DNA of 64,000 nt from the NCBI GenBank assembly GCA_018698675.1, contig JABIPA010000059.1, positions 15,784 through 79,783 on the forward strand. Direction: 5' to 3'. The notes beneath the pieces are model-generated. The model made no database searches, was not told the origin of the DNA, and was given only the letters and a program-made list of their open reading frames with translations. This document shows positions 24,863-35,081 of the stretch, piece after piece. The stretch's first letter is position 1, and each line of letters opens with the position of its first letter. The translations under genes and the position numbers were made by a program. Source of the DNA: a bacterium (GTDB taxonomy: Bacteria; Margulisbacteria; Marinamargulisbacteria; JABIPA01).

Positions 24863-27622
24863 CTAAAAAACAAAAGATAAATCAAATTCAACAAACATTC
24901 CCAAGCCCGCCTCATTTTTTAGTGAGGCAATACCAACATCTAAAGTAAGAGGTACGATTGTATAAATAGGAAGCTCTAGATTAGTAGCAAGCGCTATCCC
25001 GTACGAATAATCTACTATATCGTCTAAAAATGAAGATTTTGAATCCGTTAAAACATCAGAAAATAGCTTTAAATAAACATCACCTATCCCAGTAAAATAA
25101 TCATCACTACTTACGTTTAACCGGAGCACTTGTCTATAGAAAGAGAAGTTGTAGACAGTTCCTTCATCAACATAATAATATCCACCACGCCCCGTTATCC
25201 ACACGGGCTCAGTAAATTTATCAAAATTTTGTACGTCAATATTTAAAGAACTAAACTCTCCTATCCAAGTTGTATTCACCTCAGCAAAGTAGCCCTTAAT
25301 ACCAATAGAGTCTTTCGATAGACTGTATTTTAAACGTCCCGTTGAACGTATATCACTGTCACGATAAGTTCCGGACACTCCAACTCCAACCATTCCATCC
25401 AATTGCCCATAACTATCATATGAAGCAGAGGACCCACCTGCCACGACAATTTCCGACTGATAAAATAGTGAGGCAGCTAACCGCTGAATGCCTTTTGTTT
25501 GAGACCTATGCATTAAGTAACTCGTATCCAGTTCTACTATTGGGTTTTCTAATTCGGAGTTCGAATAAATAGAGGTAGATGTATTAAATGGGACAAACCC
25601 TTTGAAGCCGGCCGAAAATCTCATACCTGACGACGAGAATTGGGAGGAATAAGAAACACTATCAATATGGTCACTACCCATTGCAGTAAACGGTATAAAT
25701 CGTGCAAACGGCATCAATAAACTCAACAAATTTGAAGTAAATGCGTCTTCCTTTTTAATCATCACCTCTTTATTAAAAGATGCTTCATTTTCATGAATAT
25801 TACCCACTGCATTTAATAAATTGTTTTTATAACTAGTTACATCAACAGATTGATTAGCTTCATCATATACATTGTCAGCATCAGTCATTTTTCCTTGGAA
25901 GGAAGCAGAGCGCTCGTCTACCAGGCTGATCGTCTTATTATCTAAATACGGTGTTTTAACGATATGTGTTCCCACAGACCCAGGAGTTAAATAAACTAAC
26001 GCATCCCCAACTTTTCCTGAAAATGCCGCGTAATCACTATTTGTAAGCTTTGAAATTTTTTCTGTACTTAAATCAAGTTCAAAAATGTTCGTCTGTTTAT
26101 TTTTTAAGGCCGAATAAATAATTTTACCTTCTCCCGTACTTGATAAAAAGTATTCTGGGTTAGGCGTGTCCGTTCGTTTTGTGGCTCGAAATGATTGACT
26201 GTCTATCTCATAAAGATCCCATCCAGACGTTGTCGTTTTTCCAATAACAAACCATCTCCCAGTTTCATTTACTATTTCAGAAACTAAAATCGAGCATTCG
26301 CCAAGCTTAGAATGATTTCCGTCCCTAAATTCCCACACCTCTGATTTATCGTGACTGTGATTATCCTTAAAATAGACTATCGAGTCTCCTAAGGGTAAAA
26401 AAGAGCGTAACGATGACTTAAAGAGATCTGTCTCTTCACCAGTCCTCAGATCTTTCTTAATCACTTTTGTAATTCCTCCAAATCCCATAAGGGCCATGTT
26501 TTGATGACCATATTCGAGTTCCCTTAACGCAATATATAAATTCTCATTTAAAACCTGTGGCTTCGCGGCCATGGATGATTTATATTCTCCAAAAACTGTC
26601 TTCTCTCCATTTATTAGCCCAACTTTTACCAACTGATAAGAACGAACTATTTTTCCAGGACTTGGCGCCAACAACCTATTTTCAAACGTAAAAAACGAGT
26701 CATCCGTAATAGGAACAATCCACTGCTTTTCATAAGGAGAATTATCCAAAATCTGCCCATCTTCTATTAAAGGAATCACCAACTCGAACTCACGCCATTC
26801 ACTAAATAACTGGGTTGCACTTTTCCCAAAAACGGTTTCCATTTTATCTTGAAATGAATGTAACGGTGCCAGCGTGTAAAAAAGGTCGTCCAAATTCGCC
26901 AAGGGGTTCCCTGCGACATCATAAATAAACGCGTTCATTTTTTCCTTTCCATATGTGGTTGTTAAATATGAAACGAATCGACTTCCTAACAGATAAGGAA
27001 TACCTCCATACGGATATCTAGAAAAAGGGCTCGTCATATTAGAAATGCTTTTTATTTGATCGGATTCCAACAACTGCCTTGTAATAAGCCTTGTTTTAGG
27101 ATCGCGTAATCGCCCATTTGTTTTCGAGTATGAAGACTCTATACCAACTGACAAGCCTTCCGAAAACCACGAAGGAGTAACTATATTTAAAGAAAATAGT
27201 TCACCGAGAACGATTTGAAGCGGATTATTATTTTTTCTCGTAAGTTGAGCGATATGCCCTACTTCATGAATACCGACATAAGATAACCAATCGTCATATA
27301 AGGCAAACCCATAGGATTCGGGCGGAGATATCCACAATGAAATTTTATTGCTTAATGGATTTGCATAACCATTCGAAATTGAACCAGTATCCTCTAGAAC
27401 CAAGGTCGTCTTAACAATTGGTCCGGCAAATTCTTCGACGACGTTTAATCTTGATTCCAACTTCGTTAACAAATCCGATGCTTTAGCTTCAAACCCTTCG
27501 GTGTAATACAATAAAAAATGAGGAGAGGATATAGCCTCCCACCCCAGAAATGAAGAGGATTGAACAATCCCACACATCCCAACAAATAGACTTATTAAAC
27601 ATACCAGAAAGTATCGATGCAT
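24863..27622 (-). CDS. secreted HExxH zinc-metalloprotease-like outer membrane protein (protease domain + beta-propeller-like middle + C-terminal beta-barrel)
   Basis: A signal peptide is present and the zincin motif is 'VGIHEVGHIAQL'. The middle has TolB/PD40-like repeats ('WDLYEIDSQ', 'TNIFELDLSTEKISKLTNS'). The C-terminal ~300 aa show alternating beta-strand patterns ending in '...FDLSFVF' with a terminal Phe, as in OM beta-barrels and autotransporters. Confidence 0.55.
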   Translation of the reverse strand: MHRYFLVCLISLFVGMCGIVQSSSFLGWEAISSPHFLLYYTEGFEAKASDLLTKLESRLNVVEEFAGPIVKTTLVLEDTGSISNGYANPLSNKISLWISPPESYGFALYDDWLSYVGIHEVGHIAQLTRKNNNPLQIVLGELFSLNIVTPSWFSEGLSVGIESSYSKTNGRLRDPKTRLITRQLLESDQIKSISNMTSPFSRYPYGGIPYLLGSRFVSYLTTTYGKEKMNAFIYDVAGNPLANLDDLFYTLAPLHSFQDKMETVFGKSATQLFSEWREFELVIPLIEDGQILDNSPYEKQWIVPITDDSFFTFENRLLAPSPGKIVRSYQLVKVGLINGEKTVFGEYKSSMAAKPQVLNENLYIALRELEYGHQNMALMGFGGITKVIKKDLRTGEETDLFKSSLRSFLPLGDSIVYFKDNHSHDKSEVWEFRDGNHSKLGECSILVSEIVNETGRWFVIGKTTTSGWDLYEIDSQSFRATKRTDTPNPEYFLSSTGEGKIIYSALKNKQTNIFELDLSTEKISKLTNSDYAAFSGKVGDALVYLTPGSVGTHIVKTPYLDNKTISLVDERSASFQGKMTDADNVYDEANQSVDVTSYKNNLLNAVGNIHENEASFNKEVMIKKEDAFTSNLLSLLMPFARFIPFTAMGSDHIDSVSYSSQFSSSGMRFSAGFKGFVPFNTSTSIYSNSELENPIVELDTSYLMHRSQTKGIQRLAASLFYQSEIVVAGGSSASYDSYGQLDGMVGVGVSGTYRDSDIRSTGRLKYSLSKDSIGIKGYFAEVNTTWIGEFSSLNIDVQNFDKFTEPVWITGRGGYYYVDEGTVYNFSFYRQVLRLNVSSDDYFTGIGDVYLKLFSDVLTDSKSSFLDDIVDYSYGIALATNLELPIYTIVPLTLDVGIASLKNEAGLGMFVEFDLSFVF

Positions 27623-28662: not shown

Positions 28663-29769
28663 TTAAAACATCATTACCTGACGAGCCATTTCTCTACCTA
28701 GAGGCGTCAAACTGAGCCGTGACTTATTACGAGTAATTAAGTTTTTCTGAACGGCTCTCTGAACTATTTTTTTTGCAAACCCTGCCGACCAAGCCATATG
28801 ATCAATCATGTTCTCTACGGTATTCTCCTGATCCTCATTGTCCAACCCTTCATGTCCTAAAATTTGAACCAATAGCATTTGAACAGAAAAATTAAGCTTC
28901 TTTTTAAAATGGCTCAACACTTTTGAAACGAGACCTCGTTCTCTTGCAAAAAATAAAGCCATCAAAAATAACACGCCATTCATTGTCGCCATCGAGCCAG
29001 CAATAGAAGCATCTAAAACGTAAGCCATACCATACCCCAACACGGCAGATGCGACGCCTACCGCCATACTTATGCCAATCATTCTGGATAACTTAGTCGT
29101 CAATAAAAAAGCGGTTGCAGGAGGAGCAATGATTAACGCCACAACCAAAACAGACCCAGCAACTTCGAATGCCCCAACGGTCGTAACACTTGTCACCGTC
29201 ATTAACCCGTAGTGAATTAAAACAGGAGAAAAACCCAATGACGTAGCCAATCCTTTATCAAAGGTTGCCAACTTTAACTCTTTATAAAATAGCAGTAAAC
29301 CAACAACATTAATCAACGATATTGTTCCCATCATCCATAACCCAACGGGACCAAGATCGAGCCCTCCAATATCCATCCTGTGGAAAGGAGCTAGTGCAAG
29401 CTCTCCTAATAAAACTGCATCTAAATCAATATGAACATTTCCCGCATATTTGCTAATTAATATGACTCCTATGGAAAAAAATAATGGAAACACTAAACCA
29501 ATGGCAGCATCTTTTTTTAACCTATTCGTGTTAATCAAAACCTCCGTTAAGGTAACAGTCAAAACACCAGTCAAAGCGGCTCCAATAATTAAAAGAGGCG
29601 AATCCAAGGTCTTTACCATAAAAAACATCACAACAATCCCAAGTAAAATAGCGTGACTGATTGCATCACTCATTAGCGCAACTCCACGCAAAACCAAGAA
29701 TACCCCCGGAATTGCACAAGAAAAAGCGGTTAACGCCGCAATTAAAATAATTTCAGTTTGAAAACTCAT
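28663..29769 (-). CDS. metal ABC transporter permease (YtgD/ZnuB/MntB family) with C-terminal winged-helix (DtxR-like) extension
   Basis: An 8-TM permease core (~275 aa) is followed by ~90 aa reading 'LVQILGHEGL...VENMIDHMAWSAGFAKKIVQRAVQKNLITR..SRLSLTPLGREMARQV', an HTH plus wing. Confidence 0.8.
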   Translation of the reverse strand: MSFQTEIILIAALTAFSCAIPGVFLVLRGVALMSDAISHAILLGIVVMFFMVKTLDSPLLIIGAALTGVLTVTLTEVLINTNRLKKDAAIGLVFPLFFSIGVILISKYAGNVHIDLDAVLLGELALAPFHRMDIGGLDLGPVGLWMMGTISLINVVGLLLFYKELKLATFDKGLATSLGFSPVLIHYGLMTVTSVTTVGAFEVAGSVLVVALIIAPPATAFLLTTKLSRMIGISMAVGVASAVLGYGMAYVLDASIAGSMATMNGVLFLMALFFARERGLVSKVLSHFKKKLNFSVQMLLVQILGHEGLDNEDQENTVENMIDHMAWSAGFAKKIVQRAVQKNLITRNKSRLSLTPLGREMARQVMMF

Positions 29770-30881
29770 GCCTGCATCCCCACTAATAAAGATCTTACGT
29801 ATTTGTGGCCCTTAATTGTTAGCCCCCAATGTTTATATGCCGTCGAATGAATATAACCACTCTCTTCCAATTTCCTAATAACCGAATCCAAACTAGCACC
29901 TCCAACGGATCTCAACGCCTGAATATCATGAGCATGAGTGACATCGTCGTGACCTTCTGAAAGATAAAACAGATTAGTTAAAAACGTATCTTCCTTGACT
30001 TGCTTTTGATTCGATTTATTCCTCTTCCATGCCCAAAAAAGGCCACGATTTGGAGCAAACCCTAATGAAGCAAAAACAATAGTACTAATAGCAACAACTA
30101 TAACGGGGCCAGTAGGTAAGTTATTAATCTGACTACTAAACATAACTCCGACTAATCCTGCTAATGCTCCAAAAATAGCAGCTAAAACAACCATCATTCC
30201 TAACCTATCCGTCCATTGTCGAGCGGCGGCAGCTGGAGCAATTATCATCGCACTCATCAAAACAACCCCAACCGTTTGCAACCCAATAACGATGCTACAA
30301 ACAATCAAACTCGTTAAAAATATATCTAATCGTTTTTGAGGAAACCCCAATGTTGCTGCAAACTCAGGATTAAACGACACTAACTTAAATTCCTTCCAAA
30401 AAAGAGTAAGTACCGCCAAAATGACAACGCCAAAAATTGTCATCACAATGACATCCTCTTCTAATAAAGTTGCTGCATTTCCGAATAGAAACCTGTTAAG
30501 CCCAGCCTTATTAGCGGTTGGAAGTCGTTGAATAATTGTAAGAAGAACCATTCCGAATCCGAAAAATACAGACAACACGATCCCGAGTGCGGCATCTTTT
30601 TTAAGAGAGGTATACTCCGTAATTAAAAACATGCCTAGAGATGCCAATATTCCAGAAATAATTGCGCCTATTAATAATACTAATAGACTTTTACTGTACG
30701 TTAACATGAAGGCTACCGCAATTCCTGGCAAAGCGGCATGAGATATAGCATCTCCCAACAAGCTTTGCTTCCTTAGAACGGCAAAACTACCCAAGGCACC
30801 CGAAACAATCCCTAATACCAACGTGCCTAATACAACTGTGCGGACCGTGTAATCAAAAAACAAATCATGAATAAGAGTCAT
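29766..30881 (-). CDS. metal ABC transporter permease (YtgC-like) with C-terminal winged-helix extension
   Basis: The permease core is followed by 'LTNLFYLSEG...IQALRSVGGASLDSVIRKLEESGYIHS...WGLTIKGHKYV', a wHTH. It overlaps the downstream permease gene by 4 nt. Confidence 0.8.
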   Translation of the reverse strand: MTLIHDLFFDYTVRTVVLGTLVLGIVSGALGSFAVLRKQSLLGDAISHAALPGIAVAFMLTYSKSLLVLLIGAIISGILASLGMFLITEYTSLKKDAALGIVLSVFFGFGMVLLTIIQRLPTANKAGLNRFLFGNAATLLEEDVIVMTIFGVVILAVLTLFWKEFKLVSFNPEFAATLGFPQKRLDIFLTSLIVCSIVIGLQTVGVVLMSAMIIAPAAAARQWTDRLGMMVVLAAIFGALAGLVGVMFSSQINNLPTGPVIVVAISTIVFASLGFAPNRGLFWAWKRNKSNQKQVKEDTFLTNLFYLSEGHDDVTHAHDIQALRSVGGASLDSVIRKLEESGYIHSTAYKHWGLTIKGHKYVRSLLVGMQA

Positions 30882-30883
30882 TA

Positions 30884-31648
30884 CTAGAGGGCGTCCAAAT
30901 TAATAGTAGTATCTTTTCCAACAAAAGGTGTTTTTCCGCTGTACGCCTGACTCAAGTTTTCTTGAGTTATTATATCTTTGACCGGTCCCATCGCTATTTT
31001 TCTAACGTTTAACAATAGTGCCCAATCAAAATAATCTTTTAGGGTTTGCAAATCGTGATGAACAACTATAACCGTTTTTTCTTTTCCTCTTAATTCTTTT
31101 AAAAGTGCCACAATTGCTTTTTCGGTCTTAGCATCAACCCCCACAAACGGTTCATCCATAAAATAAATTTGAGAATCTTGAGCCAGTGCTCGTGCTAAAA
31201 ACACGCGTTGTTGTTGACCTCCAGATAATTGATTTATCTGACGATATGCAAAATCCGCCATCCCTACTTTTTCAAGACATTCCATAGCTATTTCCACATC
31301 TCGTTTACCTGGCCGTTTAAACCAACCTAAATGACCATAACGCCCCATCAATACAACATCTAACGCATTCGTAGGAAAGTCCCAGTCGACGCTTCCGCGT
31401 TGAGGAACATATCCGACTGAACGAAAAGACTTTTGATAGACATTCCCGTTAATAAAAACACTACCTGCAGCGGGCTTTATTAAGCCTAATATGGCTTTTA
31501 TCAGTGTCGTCTTCCCTGCCCCATTTGGTCCTACAATAGCCATCAATACCCCGTGAGGAACCTTGATATCGATATCCCATAGAACGGGCTTCTCTTTATA
31601 AGCGACTGTTAAGTCACGAACCTCTACTGCAGGAATGATTGAATTCAT
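30884..31648 (-). CDS. metal ABC transporter ATP-binding protein (ZnuC/YtgB-like)
   Basis: The Walker A is 'GPNGAGKTTL', the ABC signature is 'LSGGQQQRV', and the Walker B is 'IYFMDEP'. Confidence 0.9.
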   Translation of the reverse strand: MNSIIPAVEVRDLTVAYKEKPVLWDIDIKVPHGVLMAIVGPNGAGKTTLIKAILGLIKPAAGSVFINGNVYQKSFRSVGYVPQRGSVDWDFPTNALDVVLMGRYGHLGWFKRPGKRDVEIAMECLEKVGMADFAYRQINQLSGGQQQRVFLARALAQDSQIYFMDEPFVGVDAKTEKAIVALLKELRGKEKTVIVVHHDLQTLKDYFDWALLLNVRKIAMGPVKDIITQENLSQAYSGKTPFVGKDTTINLDAL

Positions 31649-31649
31649 T

Positions 31650-32810
31650 TTAAAACCTTACATTTGCGATTAGGAGAAGTCCACTAACGTCAGTTTCTTG
31701 GCCAGCGGTTTCCTTTTCATAGTTATCCAACACCCATTCTGCTTTAAGCAAAACATTTTCTTTATGAAAGTACCCAATTCCTAGCTCGTATCGAGTTATC
31801 GTTTGGTCCGGAGAAACAGTTGCTCCAAAATTAAACGCTGGGTTTGGTAGAGTGGAGGACATTCCTGCTCCTGAACCATCGTTATCTTCTGGTATCCAAG
31901 TTGATACTCTCCCTGAAACAAACATATCTCCTACATTATGTCTTGCTTCTGCAATAATAGACGTAACCTTGTCTTCTGTTCCATCATGCTCATCCCCATA
32001 AGTTAATTGAGAATAAGATCCAATCAATTCAGTTGATGTTCCAATTATCGAGATACCGTCAACCATCCACCCTTGGAAATCTGACGAAAAGCCAGATGTG
32101 GCGTTTTTAATATCATTGCTTCTCATATATGTTCCACTTAATTCAGTTTTAATTTCTTCGATAAATAAGGACTGCCCGATTACCAATTCAAATTGACCGT
32201 CTGGATTCGTCGCTGATTCATCCGTACCATTCGAAATTGCCAACGTAGACGTCCCTACGGATGAATCCCAATTAATCATTGCTCCCAATGTATTCAATGT
32301 TCCCATTGGTCCTGCAAAGGCACTGTATAACAAAGGATTAATTATTAAGTTATTGTTAAATGTATCCGCATTATTTGATAACATTCCTGTTTGTTGTCCA
32401 AAGGGAGTATCATAAGACCCTACAACCACAGTTACTGTTCTCGCTCTATTTGTATATTCAATACCTATATCTGTTAACTCAGCCCCGGGACCAGGGAACC
32501 CGTATGTTCCATTTCCTGGGCTTGTTTGTAATTGAAGATAGGCCTTAATTCCTGGCGCTAATTTCGTCTCAAAATCAATGTTTGCAGCATAATCAAATTG
32601 ATATCGATTAGTAGCTGAGTTTGTACTTTGGGTAAGAAGATTTAATCCTCCTAAAATCGACCCACCAACGCTTACATTATTCATAAAATCACTAATTTTT
32701 ACGCGCTCTTCTAGTGGAAATAATCCAGATACTTCTAAATTTGCCATTGTAGGGCTTACCAAAATAGCTAGTGACGCCGCCAATATTCCTATATTTTTTA
32801 AATTTTTCAT
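31650..32810 (-). CDS. outer-membrane beta-barrel (porin-like) protein embedded in metal-uptake operon
   Basis: A signal peptide ('AILVSPTMA') is present. Amphipathic beta-strand periodicity runs throughout. The aromatic C-terminus '...LLLIANVRF' has a terminal Phe. The gene is tightly packed between the SBP and ATPase genes. Confidence 0.5.
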   Translation of the reverse strand: MKNLKNIGILAASLAILVSPTMANLEVSGLFPLEERVKISDFMNNVSVGGSILGGLNLLTQSTNSATNRYQFDYAANIDFETKLAPGIKAYLQLQTSPGNGTYGFPGPGAELTDIGIEYTNRARTVTVVVGSYDTPFGQQTGMLSNNADTFNNNLIINPLLYSAFAGPMGTLNTLGAMINWDSSVGTSTLAISNGTDESATNPDGQFELVIGQSLFIEEIKTELSGTYMRSNDIKNATSGFSSDFQGWMVDGISIIGTSTELIGSYSQLTYGDEHDGTEDKVTSIIAEARHNVGDMFVSGRVSTWIPEDNDGSGAGMSSTLPNPAFNFGATVSPDQTITRYELGIGYFHKENVLLKAEWVLDNYEKETAGQETDVSGLLLIANVRF

Positions 32811-32898
32811 TTTTCTTCCTTTTTAAGTCGTATTTTGCAAGCAAATATTCGCTTTATAACTTCAACACGCCTGTCTCTTACATAGATAGTTCTATCAT

Positions 32899-33945
32899 CT
32901 AGTGAGTATGATTATCTCCGCCATGATGATGATGGCCTTGTTCAATACTTTTTTTACGTGGAGCCAATCCATTTAATATCGTAGTCGTATTATGCTCAAC
33001 CATTCCAATATAAGTCCCTTCAGCTGTTCCTGGATTTCCCATTGCGTCTGAAAATAACTCGCCACCAATTTTAACATCCCACCCACGTGACTGAGTTGCT
33101 CTTTGAACGGCTTCAATATTTCTTTTTGAAATCGATGATTCAATGAAAATGGCTGGGATTTTGTTATCTACTATATAAGTCGCTAAATTTTGAATATCTC
33201 TCGTACCCGCTTCAGATTCCGTACTTATCCCCATCAATCCTTTTACAACGAAACCATAAGCTAGTCCGTAATAATTAAAAGCATCATGAGCTGTAACTAA
33301 AACACGTTGCTCTTTAGGAATCATATCCGTTTTTTCCTCAATCCACGTGTTCAACTTATTTAATTTTGTTAAATAGGCCGCCTTGTTCCTTAAAAACGCT
33401 TCTTTATTTTCAGGATCTAGTGTTATCAACGTATCTCCAACGGCATCTACAGCATACGCCCATAACTCAACGTCAAACCACACATGAGGATCAAATTGCC
33501 CTTCGAATTCAGGTGGTTTTTTTAGTTTATCTTTAGGAATACGTTCGGCAACAGCGACTGTTGGTTTCTGTTTATTTAGCTTTTTAAAAATGTCCCCCAT
33601 TTTGGCTTCTAAGTGTAATCCATTATAAAAAATAATATTTGCGTCTGATAATTTCCGTACATCTCCTTCGCTTGCCCGATAAAGATGAGGGTCCACTCCA
33701 GGCCCCATTAATCCAACAACGTCAACATATTCTCCACCAACATTGGTTACTATGTCAGCTATCATTCCGGTTGTTGCAACCGCGTGTACTAAATTCTCAT
33801 TCTTTGTTCCTGATTTGTCATCGTTACATCCAAACAATCCTAAACTAACAATTCCAATCATTCCTGCTCCGATCAAAAATGACGTCGCTTTTAAAAACGT
33901 ATTCAACGTAAAAAATTGTTCTCTTTTTTGATTTATATTTTTCAT
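32899..33945 (-). CDS. metal ABC transporter substrate-binding protein (ZnuA/TroA/YtgA cluster A-I) with His-rich C-terminus
   Basis: A lipoprotein signal 'LGLFGCN' is present. The fold is TroA-like. The C-terminal tail is 'GHHHHGGDNHTH'. Confidence 0.85.
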   Translation of the reverse strand: MKNINQKREQFFTLNTFLKATSFLIGAGMIGIVSLGLFGCNDDKSGTKNENLVHAVATTGMIADIVTNVGGEYVDVVGLMGPGVDPHLYRASEGDVRKLSDANIIFYNGLHLEAKMGDIFKKLNKQKPTVAVAERIPKDKLKKPPEFEGQFDPHVWFDVELWAYAVDAVGDTLITLDPENKEAFLRNKAAYLTKLNKLNTWIEEKTDMIPKEQRVLVTAHDAFNYYGLAYGFVVKGLMGISTESEAGTRDIQNLATYIVDNKIPAIFIESSISKRNIEAVQRATQSRGWDVKIGGELFSDAMGNPGTAEGTYIGMVEHNTTTILNGLAPRKKSIEQGHHHHGGDNHTH

Positions 33946-33963
33946 TTTTAATTAATTCCTTTT

Positions 33964-34659
33964 CTAATTTATTGGGTCTACCCAAATATTTTGACAAATT
34001 TTAGTACTCAAACTCGATGTTTTTTCACCAATTCTAACCTGTACTGTTCCATCAAATTCCAATATTCCGGAAACAGTAATCAACACCCCTATTGTTATTC
34101 CTTCGTTCTCAAGATGTTCTAATAATTCCGAGTCAAAATTACTAACTCTTACAATTTTACAAACATCCCCTTTTTTACTCTCTGACAAAGGTATTGCAGT
34201 CTTATGTGTTGGAATGATTCCGTTTTTGTCAGGAATAGGCGCTCCATGAGGGTCGAATTGTGGGAACCCTAATTTCTTATCCATTTTATTTATAAGATAG
34301 TCTGAAGCAAAATGTTCCAAAACTTCTGCTTCTTCATGCACCATATTTCGAGGAATATCTAAGTATTCATGAAGATAAAGCTCAATTAATCGATGACGCC
34401 GGATAACCAATTTCCCCTTTTTGATTCCTTCGGGTAATAAACGAACACCCTTGTATGGAATGTAGTCTAATAATTCTTTGGTCGCTAATTTCTTAACCAT
34501 TTCACTTACGGCGGCAGACGTTACTCCAAGTTTATTTGCAATATCTTGAGTTTTTACGGAACCGGAAGACACATTCATCAATTTATAAATTGCCTTTAAA
34601 TAATCCTCGGTACTTATGGACTCTTTCTTTGTTTCATCGGTAATTTTTATAATGCTCAT
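33964..34659 (-). CDS. DtxR/MntR-family metal-dependent transcriptional regulator (with C-terminal FeoA/SH3-like domain)
   Basis: The N-terminal HTH is 'TEDYLKAIYKL...VKTQDIANKLGVTSAAVSEMVKKLATKELLDYIPYKGVRLLPEGIKKG'. The protein is 231 aa. Confidence 0.8.
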   Translation of the reverse strand: MSIIKITDETKKESISTEDYLKAIYKLMNVSSGSVKTQDIANKLGVTSAAVSEMVKKLATKELLDYIPYKGVRLLPEGIKKGKLVIRRHRLIELYLHEYLDIPRNMVHEEAEVLEHFASDYLINKMDKKLGFPQFDPHGAPIPDKNGIIPTHKTAIPLSESKKGDVCKIVRVSNFDSELLEHLENEGITIGVLITVSGILEFDGTVQVRIGEKTSSLSTKICQNIWVDPIN

Positions 34660-34697
34660 ACTTTATTTCCTTCTACCCAACTATAATTAGATTTTAG

Positions 34698-34719
34698 AAG
34701 TTTAAGCATGCTTAAACTT
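34698..34719. promoter_or_regulatory. 22-bp perfect palindrome (candidate DtxR-family operator) upstream of the regulator/ytg-like operon
   Basis: 'aagtttaagcatgcttaaactt' is its own reverse complement. It lies ~40 bp upstream of the DtxR-family gene start at 34659. Confidence 0.45.
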
Positions 34720-35081
34720 TTTGTCAAGCACCCTTTATTTAATAGTTGGGAATAACCAATAAATAAATTTTTGCCTTAAGTACAGATTAATTATCCAATT
34801 TTTTACAGAGGTTTTTAAAGCGAAGATATAAAAGCAATACCAACGTCGAGGCTTATTTTCTTGGCATCTCAGTGAATACATTTATATATAGCTATAGAGG
34901 TGTTTTTTATAATACAGATCCTGAAAAAATGCAGAAAAGAGCTCTTACGTTATAGATGCCTATTCACTAATTCGATAGTATTCTTAGTTTTTAATAAAAA
35001 AATCGTGTTCGAAACGAAGTTCGTGAAGAAAAAAACGTTCATGTTGAAAGGAACCTAATTGAGTGTCCTCAACCTACTGTT

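Follow-up and report, generated by a model that had tools for sequence, protein, structure and literature searches.

Winged-helix tails on both permeases of a predicted divalent-metal ABC importer encoded beside a separate DtxR/MntR-family regulator

In Chlamydia trachomatis, the ytgABCD operon encodes YtgC-YtgR (YtgCR), a permease-repressor fusion (PMC5599777, PMC7755916). Its DtxR-like repressor domain, YtgR, has conserved metal-coordinating residues, is cleaved as a product of ~28 to 30 kDa, and represses as a metal-loaded dimer (PMC5599777, PMC7755916). The locus described here, from a window of 64,000 nucleotides (the whole stretch of DNA analyzed), raises a related question, as both permeases of its metal-uptake operon end in a winged-helix tail and a complete regulator is encoded alongside. 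A sequence-only reading placed the operon in a chlamydial setting and saw in it a triple regulatory redundancy. We asked whether the tails are additional repressors or serve some other role.

RESULTS

Operon content and origin

The minus strand carries a six-gene operon encoding a regulator, a binding protein, a 386-aa protein, an ATPase, and two ABC-3 permeases. The genes adjoin, with gaps of 1 to 2 nt or overlap, and permeases C (29766..30881, minus, 371 aa) and D (28663..29769, minus, 368 aa) share 4 nt. Every open reading frame of the sequence-only reading was recovered at the same coordinates. The features are as follows.

34699..34727, minus: predicted sigma-70-type promoter, TTGACA / 17-nt spacer / TAAACT, 5' of the regulator gene (10/12 matches, the best of the region)
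34699..34718, either strand: perfect 20-bp palindrome AGTTTAAGCATGCTTAAACT over the spacer and -10 hexamer (one exact copy)
33964..34659, minus: DtxR/MntR-family metalloregulator, 231 aa (PF01325, 7.7e-18; PF02742, 7e-25; PF04023, 8.1e-13)
32899..33945, minus: cluster A-I metal-binding protein (ZnuA/TroA/PsaA family), 348 aa (PF01297, 1.1e-78)
31650..32810, minus: 386-aa conserved protein with a signal-peptide-like N terminus and a C-terminal ...NVRF (homologs in L001 and L006)
30884..31648, minus: ABC ATPase, Mn/Fe/Zn importer type, 254 aa (PF00005, 3.3e-29)
30057..30881, minus: permease C, ABC-3 transmembrane core, residues 1-275 (PF00950, 7.6e-73, residues 12-273)
29766..30056, minus: permease C tail, residues 276-371, linker helix then winged helix (pLDDT 86.6)
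28945..29769, minus: permease D, ABC-3 transmembrane core, residues 1-275 (PF00950, 8.3e-44, residues 6-274)
28663..28944, minus: permease D tail, residues 276-368, linker helix then winged helix (pLDDT 93.7)

The binding protein and ATPase are the operon partners expected of ABC-3 permeases. Judged by its gene content, the operon is a high-affinity divalent-metal ABC importer of the TroABCD/MntABCD type from a Marinamargulisbacteria-like bacterium, and the imported metal is most likely Mn(II), with Fe or Zn possible. The top NCBIfam match of the ATPase was a manganese/iron ABC ATP-binding protein (4.8e-70). That of the regulator was MntR (4.1e-47), but under that model's cutoff, and the binding protein gave partial matches to the AztC, EfaA, and MntC models, every one of them under cutoff. 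The chlamydial setting did not hold up, since no chlamydial protein was named among the best 240 matches. The best named matches belong to "Candidatus Marinamargulisbacteria," where gene order is identical; an unclassified MAG (L006) and a Marinamargulisbacteria operon (L001) are most closely related.

Extent and fold of the permease tails

PF00950 matched permeases C and D with 245.6 and 150.5 bits, respectively (cutoff, 20.1), and both align with the chains of solved PsaC and ZnuB structures, permease C with residues 15-270 of PsaC. Those chains comprise 260 to 290 aa. In both permeases here the ABC-3 domain stops at about residue 273-279, and tails of 96 aa (C) and 93 aa (D) extend past the ~275-aa core. 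A basic amphipathic helix, Trp/Arg-rich in the case of C, joins each tail to the last transmembrane helix; by the positive-inside rule, these basic linkers imply a cytoplasmic location for the tails.

It is important to point out that the tails are not products of a frameshift or of misassembly, because the same extensions are found in the independent L006 (92% identity) and in hundreds of homologs, which cover 96 to 100% of the tailed permease queries, and because synonymous differences prevail. Relative to L006, the tails show 30 to 31 synonymous and 11 to 13 nonsynonymous codon differences, a ratio indicating that they are under purifying selection. Total permease length is also steady, at ~365 to 380 aa in hundreds of sequences.

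AlphaFold (AF2) modeled both tails as winged helices (H1-H2-H3-beta hairpin-H4), with pLDDT values of 86.6 (C) and 93.7 (D), which agrees with the helix-turn-helix fold first proposed for them. In Foldseek searches, the top 11 matches of the D tail were all MntR, IdeR, or DtxR N-domains (TM, 0.58 to 0.65; rmsd, 2.3 to 3.0 Å). Matches of the C tail included AF1382, MntR, and DR2539, and MntR/IdeR/DtxR N-domains, at TM 0.51 to 0.57, were among its top structural matches. At the sequence level, the relationship is remote. The C tail profile matches ScaR/SloR/IdeR/DtxR N-domains weakly (E, 0.037), and in a weak profile alignment (E, 0.0025) its register fits that of residues 13-86 in the DtxR encoded by the operon itself, while the D tail has scarcely any sequence-level match to the DtxR N-domain. 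PF01325 reached 15.9 bits on the tails versus a gathering threshold of 26, and no Pfam model matched them above threshold; individual tails match the nonregulator winged-helix families HVO_A0261_N, WH_AprA, and BLACT_WH. The tails share topology and register with the DtxR/MntR/IdeR N-domain (PF01325; H1-H2-H3-wing-start of H4), as well as an "LT..G+" motif at the wing/H4 junction, and models and profiles together suggest descent from a common ancestral stock.

The tails stop where DtxR helix 4 starts, 12 to 15 residues past the wing, and PF02742 found no match on either permease or tail; as had been noted, they are too short to include the DtxR metal-binding/dimerization domain. They had also been described as differing in sequence. 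BLASTP indeed detected no similarity between them, but their profiles are homologous to one another (hhalign, 96%; E, 4.8e-9).

Distribution of tailed permeases

The doubly tailed arrangement, taken at first as peculiar to this operon, is widespread. Tailed C and D permeases share contigs in DPANN archaea as well as in many bacterial phyla; pairs were found in Chloroflexota, Calditrichia, Zixibacteria, Thermodesulfobacteriota, Gemmatimonadota, Omnitrophica, Woesearchaeota, and Nanoarchaeota. The D tail occurs in 381 clusters at 50% identity, every time at a permease C terminus, and within this subfamily C and D tails co-occur strictly. Some operons (L001 and L004/L005) likewise begin with a complete DtxR/MntR regulator gene with an FeoA domain, while another (L002) has a tailed pair with no adjoining regulator. 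Such sequences appear to form a widespread, as yet unnamed subfamily of ABC-3 transmembrane subunits with winged-helix tails.

Conservation and charge of the tails

The best-conserved polar residues of the tails are His, Glu, and Asp, located in helices 1 and 2 and the loop that joins them (H1-H2) rather than in the recognition helix or wing. In permease D, these are Q302 (mostly His in homologs), H306, E307, E315, N320 (often His), and H324, along with W327; in permease C, they are H311, D313, H316, and H318, all in the H1-H2 loop. Over 150 diverse representatives of the D tail (tail numbering), conservation reached 90% for H27, 98% for H31, 82% for E32, 98% for E40, 77% for H49, and 100% for W52, versus only 44 to 61% for recognition-helix and wing positions. 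The pairs His27/His31 and His45/His49, on neighboring helices, each have i, i+4 spacing. In the C tail (tail numbering), the loop residues H36, H41, and H43 are conserved at 93%, 88%, and 100%, respectively. The invariant residues are maintained across phyla and domains of life, and the clusters look like metal ligands. Metal binding cannot be a universal function of such tails, however, as the His/Glu motif is missing in whole or in part from more distant tailed permeases; the Deinococcus deserti D tail is without it, and that of Paracoccus aestuarii is partly so.

The winged-helix cores have net charges of -1 (C) and +1 (D), versus +8 for the head of the operon's own DtxR. DtxR Ser42 contacts phosphate, and at the equivalent site 69% of C tails have an acidic residue. 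Helix 3 of the D tail has 39 to 55% Lys/Arg at three positions, and its helix 4 begins with a conserved G-R, as in DtxR.

Regulator and candidate operator

The first gene of the operon encodes a complete DtxR/MntR regulator, as proposed earlier, with a winged-helix N-domain (PF01325, 64.9 bits), a dimerization/metal domain (PF02742, 87.3 bits), and an FeoA (SH3-like) domain (PF04023, 48.7 bits), each above its cutoff. The palindrome, previously placed at 34698..34719, is exact at 34699..34718, and 0.01 such sequences would be expected by chance per window. A similar dyad, TTTAAG-N4-CTTAAA, lies downstream of TTGACA in L001. The palindrome is thus a candidate operator of a DtxR/MntR-family repressor, as a single, perfect, promoter-overlapping dyad kept in L001 fits a homodimeric protein of this family.

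DISCUSSION

Association of metal permeases with DtxR-related domains is already known, and the present operon shares with YtgC-YtgR an ABC-3 metal permease that carries a C-terminal domain related to the DtxR repressor, within a metal-uptake operon. Several features set the two apart. Unlike YtgR, the tails are ~10 kDa and consist of a winged helix only, without PF02742, and their conserved His/Glu/Asp clusters suggest a different ligand site. Also, both permeases are tailed, a separate full-length regulator is encoded in the operon, and the organism is not a chlamydia.

The earlier suggestion that the tails are a distinct class of DNA-binding modules is borne out as far as a distinct, conserved class is concerned; near-neutral charge and conservation away from the DNA-reading surface speak against the DNA-binding part. 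In that account, the tails would bind operon DNA, either while membrane-tethered or after YtgR-like proteolytic release, possibly as a C/D heterodimer, and so repress the operon on a second level. In keeping with it are the fold of the tails and their remote relationship to DtxR/MntR DNA-binding domains, the moderately basic helix 3 and the G-R of the D tail, and the precedent of permease-repressor fusions, reported from 11 phyla (PMC5599777). We nevertheless consider it quite unlikely. The tails have neither a dimerization nor a metal-binding domain, the cores are near neutral or acidic, most C tails have an acidic residue in place of the phosphate contact, and the surface of helix 3 and wing is poorly conserved. 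The sole strong dyad is perfect, as expected for a homodimer rather than a C/D heterodimer, and a complete regulator of homodimeric type is encoded alongside; moreover, tail form is unchanged whether or not an operon has a linked regulator. Nothing that we found speaks in favor of actual DNA binding or proteolytic release, and the triple redundancy originally envisaged finds no backing in near-neutral cores with a variable recognition helix and wing.

Alternatively, the tails might be ligand-free structural or assembly domains that pair C with D, attach to the ATPase dimer, or bring in a partner such as the soluble DtxR-family regulator, in which case the conserved His/Glu residues would form a protein-protein interface. 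Winged helices frequently act as protein-protein modules, as the nonregulator Pfam matches of individual tails recall; the strict co-occurrence of C and D tails, and their persistence in distant members without the His/Glu motif, would fit as well. This explanation deserves weight, although we judge it unlikely, as i, i+4 His pairs on adjacent helices with an invariant Glu are, in a metal transporter, more typical of a metal site, and most characterized ABC-3 heterodimers or homodimers (PsaBC, ZnuBC, and Sit) assemble without tails. In Treponema, judged by length alone, and in Deinococcus, judged by sequence, just one subunit has a long tail, so that C/D tail pairing cannot be essential. Decay of an ancestral YtgC-like permease-repressor fusion into functionless remnants might account for remote DtxR N-domain similarity and loss of the dimerization domain. 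It is strongly disfavored and seems extremely improbable given residues invariant across phyla and domains of life, compact high-confidence models, a clear excess of synonymous change, and constant permease length.

The explanation that we prefer, and to which we give slightly less than an even chance as a whole, is that the tails are cytoplasmic metal sensor or gating domains of an Mn/Fe/Zn importer whose transcription is controlled separately. The DtxR/MntR repressor encoded by the first gene would, as a metal-loaded homodimer, occupy the palindrome overlapping the -10 hexamer and so control the operon. The tails would then be not extra repressors but regulatory modules at the protein level. 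Cytoplasmic metal would be bound by the His/Glu/Asp clusters of helices 1 and 2 and the loop between them, and the metal-bound tails would in turn inhibit their own transporter (autoinhibition, or trans-inhibition), as the ZnuC zinc-sensing domain does with ZnuBC. The analysis shows the gene content, the fold, homology, distribution, and conservation pattern of the tails, and the position of the candidate operator; we infer metal binding by the tails, the effect of the tails on transport, and any pairing of C with D tails. More tentatively still, and with some doubt on our part, a DtxR-type winged helix may have moved onto both membrane subunits and been retooled as a metal-sensing gate (HxxxH/HxxxH/Glu in one tail type, an HxDxxHxH loop in the other). 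In contrast to DtxR-family N-domains, the tails have a longer H1-H2 loop, near-neutral surface charge, and no dimerization domain following, and their conserved His/Glu/Asp residues are absent from DtxR/MntR/IdeR regulators.

The trans-inhibition domains of ModC and of MetN (C2) are substrate-sensing appendages that lock ABC importers. To our knowledge, however, the trans-inhibition domains known so far are on the ATPase subunit and not on a membrane subunit, which counts against the sensor explanation; so do the DNA-binding type of the tail fold itself, the basic residues that helix 3 of the D tail retains in part, and YtgC-YtgR, in which a permease-borne DtxR-like domain is released and represses (PMC5599777). 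In the Escherichia coli zinc importer ZnuBC, also an ABC-3/cluster A-I system, the C-terminal zinc-sensing domain of ZnuC locks the transporter once Zn is bound (PMC12236471). The tails resemble it as small cytoplasmic domains on an ABC importer subunit, with substrate sensing here proposed on the strength of the conserved clusters. The domains of ZnuC, MetN, and ModC differ in being C-terminal to the ATPase and in having other folds, whereas the present operon has winged helices on both membrane subunits. The ATPase here shows an ABC_tran Pfam match that stops at residue 168, and no second domain family was found in it.

If the sensor explanation is true, one ancestral domain controls metal uptake at two levels, on DNA as the free repressor and on transporter activity as the tails. 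There would then be a large unrecognized class of self-regulating Mn/Fe/Zn importers in bacteria and DPANN archaea, and YtgC-YtgR would be a special case of a far broader association of permeases with winged helices.

Treponema TroABCD-TroR and Deinococcus-type Mn operons belong to the same transporter family as this one and likewise combine a linked repressor of DtxR/MntR type with a promoter that contains a dyad operator. In Treponema, TroD has 366 to 367 aa and TroC 298 to 304 aa (PMC2628430, Table 1), and TroD is likened to a D-tailed permease by length only; D. deserti plasmid 3 encodes 320-aa and 360-aa permeases followed by an MntR-like gene. These lengths indicate that a long second-permease tail is already present in studied operons, although we came across no discussion of it. 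In contrast to the present operon, the long tail is confined there to the second permease, that of D. deserti lacking the His/Glu motif, and the regulator gene comes last rather than first. An outer-membrane-like gene is also inserted here.

That gene encodes the 386-aa protein, for which Pfam, NCBIfam, and PDB searches gave no match. It is 42% identical to the gene at the corresponding operon position of L001 and is present in L006 too, and 1 nt separates its stop codon from the start of the ATPase gene. We regard it as a candidate outer-membrane beta-barrel or porin that is part of the operon. The binding protein, in turn, has a His-rich C terminus (HHHHGGDNHTH).

The operon and its promoter

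Six genes make up a tightly packed operon on the minus strand (28663..34727); its reading frames, like the palindrome in its promoter, were found where a sequence-only reading had placed them.

Genes of the operon (window coordinates)
34659..33964, minus strand, DtxR/MntR-family regulator (231 aa; PF01325, PF02742, and FeoA, all above threshold)
33945..32899, minus strand, cluster A-I metal-binding protein (348 aa; PF01297, 1.1e-78; C terminus His-rich)
32810..31650, minus strand, unassigned protein (386 aa; no family match)
31648..30884, minus strand, ABC ATPase (254 aa; PF00005)
30881..29766, minus strand, ABC-3 permease C (371 aa; PF00950)
29769..28663, minus strand, ABC-3 permease D (368 aa; PF00950)

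The last four genes are spaced by 1, 2, and -4 nt, and both permeases pass the membership test for the ABC-3 family (PF00950). This is an ordinary importer of the Tro/Mnt/Psa/Znu class accompanied by a DtxR-family repressor, and the full-length regulator with a FeoA domain that had been proposed as a separate gene at the operon's head is indeed there. Partial NCBIfam matches of the binding protein were divided between zinc (AztC) and manganese (EfaA/MntC) models, none of them reaching its cutoff, and point to no single metal. This protein (32899..33945, minus strand) carries a His-rich C-terminal stretch, EQGHHHHGGDNHTH.

The 386-aa protein, encoded between the binding-protein and ATPase genes, found no match in Pfam, NCBIfam, or the PDB. 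It has a signal-peptide-like N terminus and ends in ...ANVRF; a counterpart (42% identity) occupies the same position in a Marinamargulisbacteria operon (L001), and another is found in L006, an independent MAG with 92% identity. It may be a dedicated outer-membrane metal channel. Just downstream of the operon region is a 919-aa open reading frame (24863..27622, minus strand) with a signal-peptide-like start, for which the source contig's precomputed annotation gives no Pfam family.

The region's best promoter match, TTGACA-17-TAAACT, precedes the regulator gene. Its spacer and -10 hexamer are spanned by a perfect palindrome of 20 bp, AGTTTAAGCATGCTTAAACT (34699..34718); the palindrome occurs once in the window (chance expectation, 0.01) and has a counterpart in the L001 operon, TTGACA-N8-TTTAAGTGGACTTAAA. 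Judged by its sequence, it is what a DtxR/MntR repressor acting as a homodimer would be expected to recognise, such as the one encoded adjacently, and is a candidate operator.

Both permeases carry conserved winged-helix tails

In both permeases the ABC-3 domain ends near residues 273 to 279, beyond which C continues for 96 residues and D for 93; solved relatives end where the domain ends (PsaC, 282 to 290 aa; ZnuB, 260 aa). Both extensions are present in L006, with gene order unchanged, and in all of the best 120 matches of each permease, which are usually 365 to 380 aa long and cover 96 to 100% of the query. Compared with L006, the tails differ at 30 to 31 synonymous and 11 to 13 nonsynonymous codons, and the permease cores at 112 to 114 and 17 to 19, respectively. 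These counts indicate purifying selection on the tails, somewhat looser than that on the membrane core. Tails on both permeases, as first read from the sequence, are thus borne out by length and by their retention in homologues, and the artefact then named as a danger, frameshift or misassembly, is excluded by L006 and the pattern of codon differences.

Sequence libraries give only subthreshold winged-helix matches to the tails (Pfam and NCBIfam), including PF01325 at 15.9 bits, where the cutoff is 26. The fold nevertheless anticipated for them emerged from structure prediction: AlphaFold2 models (pLDDT, 86.6 for C and 93.7 for D) both show a long helix 1 running on from the membrane, a short helix 2, helix 3, a beta hairpin, and a last helix, so that each tail is a predicted winged helix. 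In a Foldseek search of the PDB, the top 11 matches of the D tail were N-terminal domains of MntR, IdeR, and DtxR (TM score, 0.58 to 0.65; rmsd, 2.3 to 3.0 Å; 73 to 77 columns), and the best matches of the C tail were the small winged helix AF1382, MntR, and the Deinococcus manganese repressor DR2539.

We also aligned 41 diverse C and 44 diverse D tail sequences. The C-tail profile matched ScaR, SloR, IdeR, and DtxR weakly (E, 0.04 to 0.9) over their residues ~5 to 80, and aligned in consistent register to residues 13 to 86 of the operon's own regulator. Against the PDB, the D-tail profile gave only weak MntR matches; a match to the repeat protein Crov588 was dropped as spurious. The alignment with the DtxR N-terminal domain that had been suggested as a check is consistent in fold and in C-tail register and weak in sequence score; the tails are probably remote kin of the DtxR DNA-binding head. 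The two tails differ in sequence, as had been noted: BLASTP found no similarity between them, and their homology (hhalign probability, 96%; E, 4.8e-9) is visible only with profiles. Both stop just past the wing, where DtxR helix 4 would start, and are, as claimed, too short for the dimerisation/metal-binding domain, which is missing from both.

Distribution of tailed permeases

The sequence-only reading had assumed a chlamydial setting, which does not hold, and the double tails are not peculiar to this operon. The closest named matches of the permeases are from Candidatus Marinamargulisbacteria (64 to 69% identity), and on the best matches of the two permeases a chlamydial origin was rejected. 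The L001 operon has the same six-gene layout, the unassigned gene included, and a protein scan for related loci returned one close MAG only. Adjacent, doubly tailed C/D pairs occur on a Thermomicrobiales contig (L002), where no regulator gene lies beside the pair, and on Woesearchaeota contigs (L004 and L005), where a short MntR-like regulator is present. By source name, such pairs are also found in Chloroflexota, Calditrichia, Zixibacteria, Thermodesulfobacteriota, Gemmatimonadaceae, Omnitrophica, and Nanoarchaeota. Searching exhaustively with an HMM of the D tail gave 381 clusters at 50% identity (195 with E of 1e-10 or less); the full-length proteins among the matches listed carry the tail at the permease C terminus, and the short ones are mostly fragments. 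A word-indexed search with the C-tail profile gave gene fragments only. Among cultured organisms, tailed permeases are encoded on plasmids of Deinococcus deserti, D. peraridilitoris, and Paracoccus aestuarii; for common Sit-type and other plasmid-borne permeases, the alignment was confined to the core.

Some loci were irregular. Of two 71-aa "D-tail" proteins looked up, one (L008) starts at a contig end, its first residue being a conserved internal Met, and the other (L007, 709..924) is a separate free-standing copy of the D-type winged helix. On these two, the 71-aa proteins are at least partly gene-calling artefacts, and a widespread free-standing paralogue or internal start was rejected. 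Upstream of the L007 copy, basic-linker remnants stand behind stop codons, and it is preceded by a membrane-protein gene whose C terminus lacks the motif ending ABC-3 cores; the copy is possibly a tail that has become a pseudogene or been moved. A 646-aa homologue of high GC content (P0298) holds, in one reading frame, a tailed C-type permease end, a Pro/Thr/Ala-rich linker, and a complete tailed D-type permease, C and D being either truly fused or joined by the gene call. On P. aestuarii plasmid p296221 (L010, 5156..5983), the first permease is annotated at 276 aa and its translation end holds a C-tail-like "W.LTPAGR", which suggests a misannotated or disrupted tailed C-type permease.

A possible role for the tails

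The first ~22 residues of the tails hold their basic charge and form an amphipathic linker rich in Arg and Trp (consensus, RGLvWnWlRxrRNRRrL), as is usual for membrane-proximal cytoplasmic segments. Among 150 diverse representatives of the D tail, conservation away from the DNA-reading surface was highest for polar residues, the values being W52 (100%), H31 (98%), E40 (98%), H27 (90%; Q, 9%), E32 (82%), H49 (77%; E, 15%), and H45 (56%); H27/H31 and H45/H49 form i, i+4 pairs on neighbouring helices 1 and 2. For comparison, F56 in helix 3 stood at 61% and R72 in the wing at 44%. In the C tail, helices 1 and 2 are joined by an HxDxxHxH loop, with H36 at 93%, D38 at 64% (N, 26%), H41 at 88%, and H43 at 100%. 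Given that the transporter is a metal importer, these His, Glu, and Asp residues are obvious candidate metal ligands.

The tails had been taken for extra DNA-binding modules, and the evidence points elsewhere. Median net charge of the winged-helix core is -1 in C and +1 in D, compared with +8 in the regulator's own N-terminal domain. By the contact numbering of DtxR-DNA complexes, the counterpart of Ser42, a phosphate contact, is acidic (Asp or Glu) in 69% of C tails, and that of Arg50 in 58%. Exposed positions of helix 3 and the wing are variable in the two tails, and the strongest polar conservation lies away from the DNA-reading surface. The perfect promoter palindrome suits a homodimeric repressor, which is encoded next door, and the tails are unchanged with or without a linked regulator gene (L001, L002, and L004/L005). 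DNA binding, whether tethered or after cleavage of the YtgR kind, for which there is a precedent (PMC5599777), is thus improbable, the D tail being the likelier candidate. Purely structural or docking domains are a somewhat less unlikely reading. A decaying remnant is disfavoured by residue conservation and purifying selection.

On core charge, contact positions, conserved polar residues, the pairing of palindrome and regulator, and independence from the regulator, we favour a role for the tails at the protein level, as control modules rather than DNA-binding ones. Cytoplasmic metal would bind the tails, and the metal-loaded tails would feed back on the transporter, gating uptake. An analogy is offered by Escherichia coli ZnuC, whose C-terminal domain senses zinc and in the zinc-bound state locks ZnuBC (PMC12236471). 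ZnuBC belongs to the same transporter family as the tailed permeases, with the sensing domain on ZnuC; classical trans-inhibition domains are not on membrane subunits, whereas the tails are. The His/Glu motif is absent from distant tails (D. deserti), so function may differ among tail subtypes.

Quick posttranslational shutoff of metal importers is little understood, the ZnuC domain being a first reported case for the ABC-3 family (a 2025 preprint; PMC12236471). Conserved, domain-sized, and present in hundreds of Mn/Fe/Zn importers, the tails are a concrete candidate for such control. They escape current domain libraries, their sole annotation being "metal ABC transporter permease," and a literature search, which was not exhaustive, found no account of short winged-helix tails on metal ABC permeases. 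Tailed permeases are best described as a widespread, undescribed variant in which an ABC-3 permease ends in a winged helix like that of DtxR; in this operon both subunits do. The tails are genuine and conserved, are common and by no means unique to this operon, and hint at a possible mechanism of control. Should the tails be ordinary structural appendages, the gain would be limited to better annotation of a standard metal-uptake system.

Their probable remote kinship with the DtxR head bears on the origin of the chlamydial YtgC-YtgR fusion, which differs in having the dimerisation/metal domain as a defining feature and in being defined without a separate regulator, such as this operon encodes. 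In Treponema, TroC is 298 to 304 aa and TroD 366 to 367 aa (PMC2628430), which by length alone fits the pattern of D. deserti, where only the second permease has a long tail. The linker of permease C (residues 279 to 295, within the tail at 29766..30056, minus strand) contains a conserved Trp-x-Trp (RGLxWxW), reminiscent of the WWW motif reported in the chlamydial YtgC permease domain, by which synthesis of YtgR is tied to the supply of tryptophan (PMC7755916).
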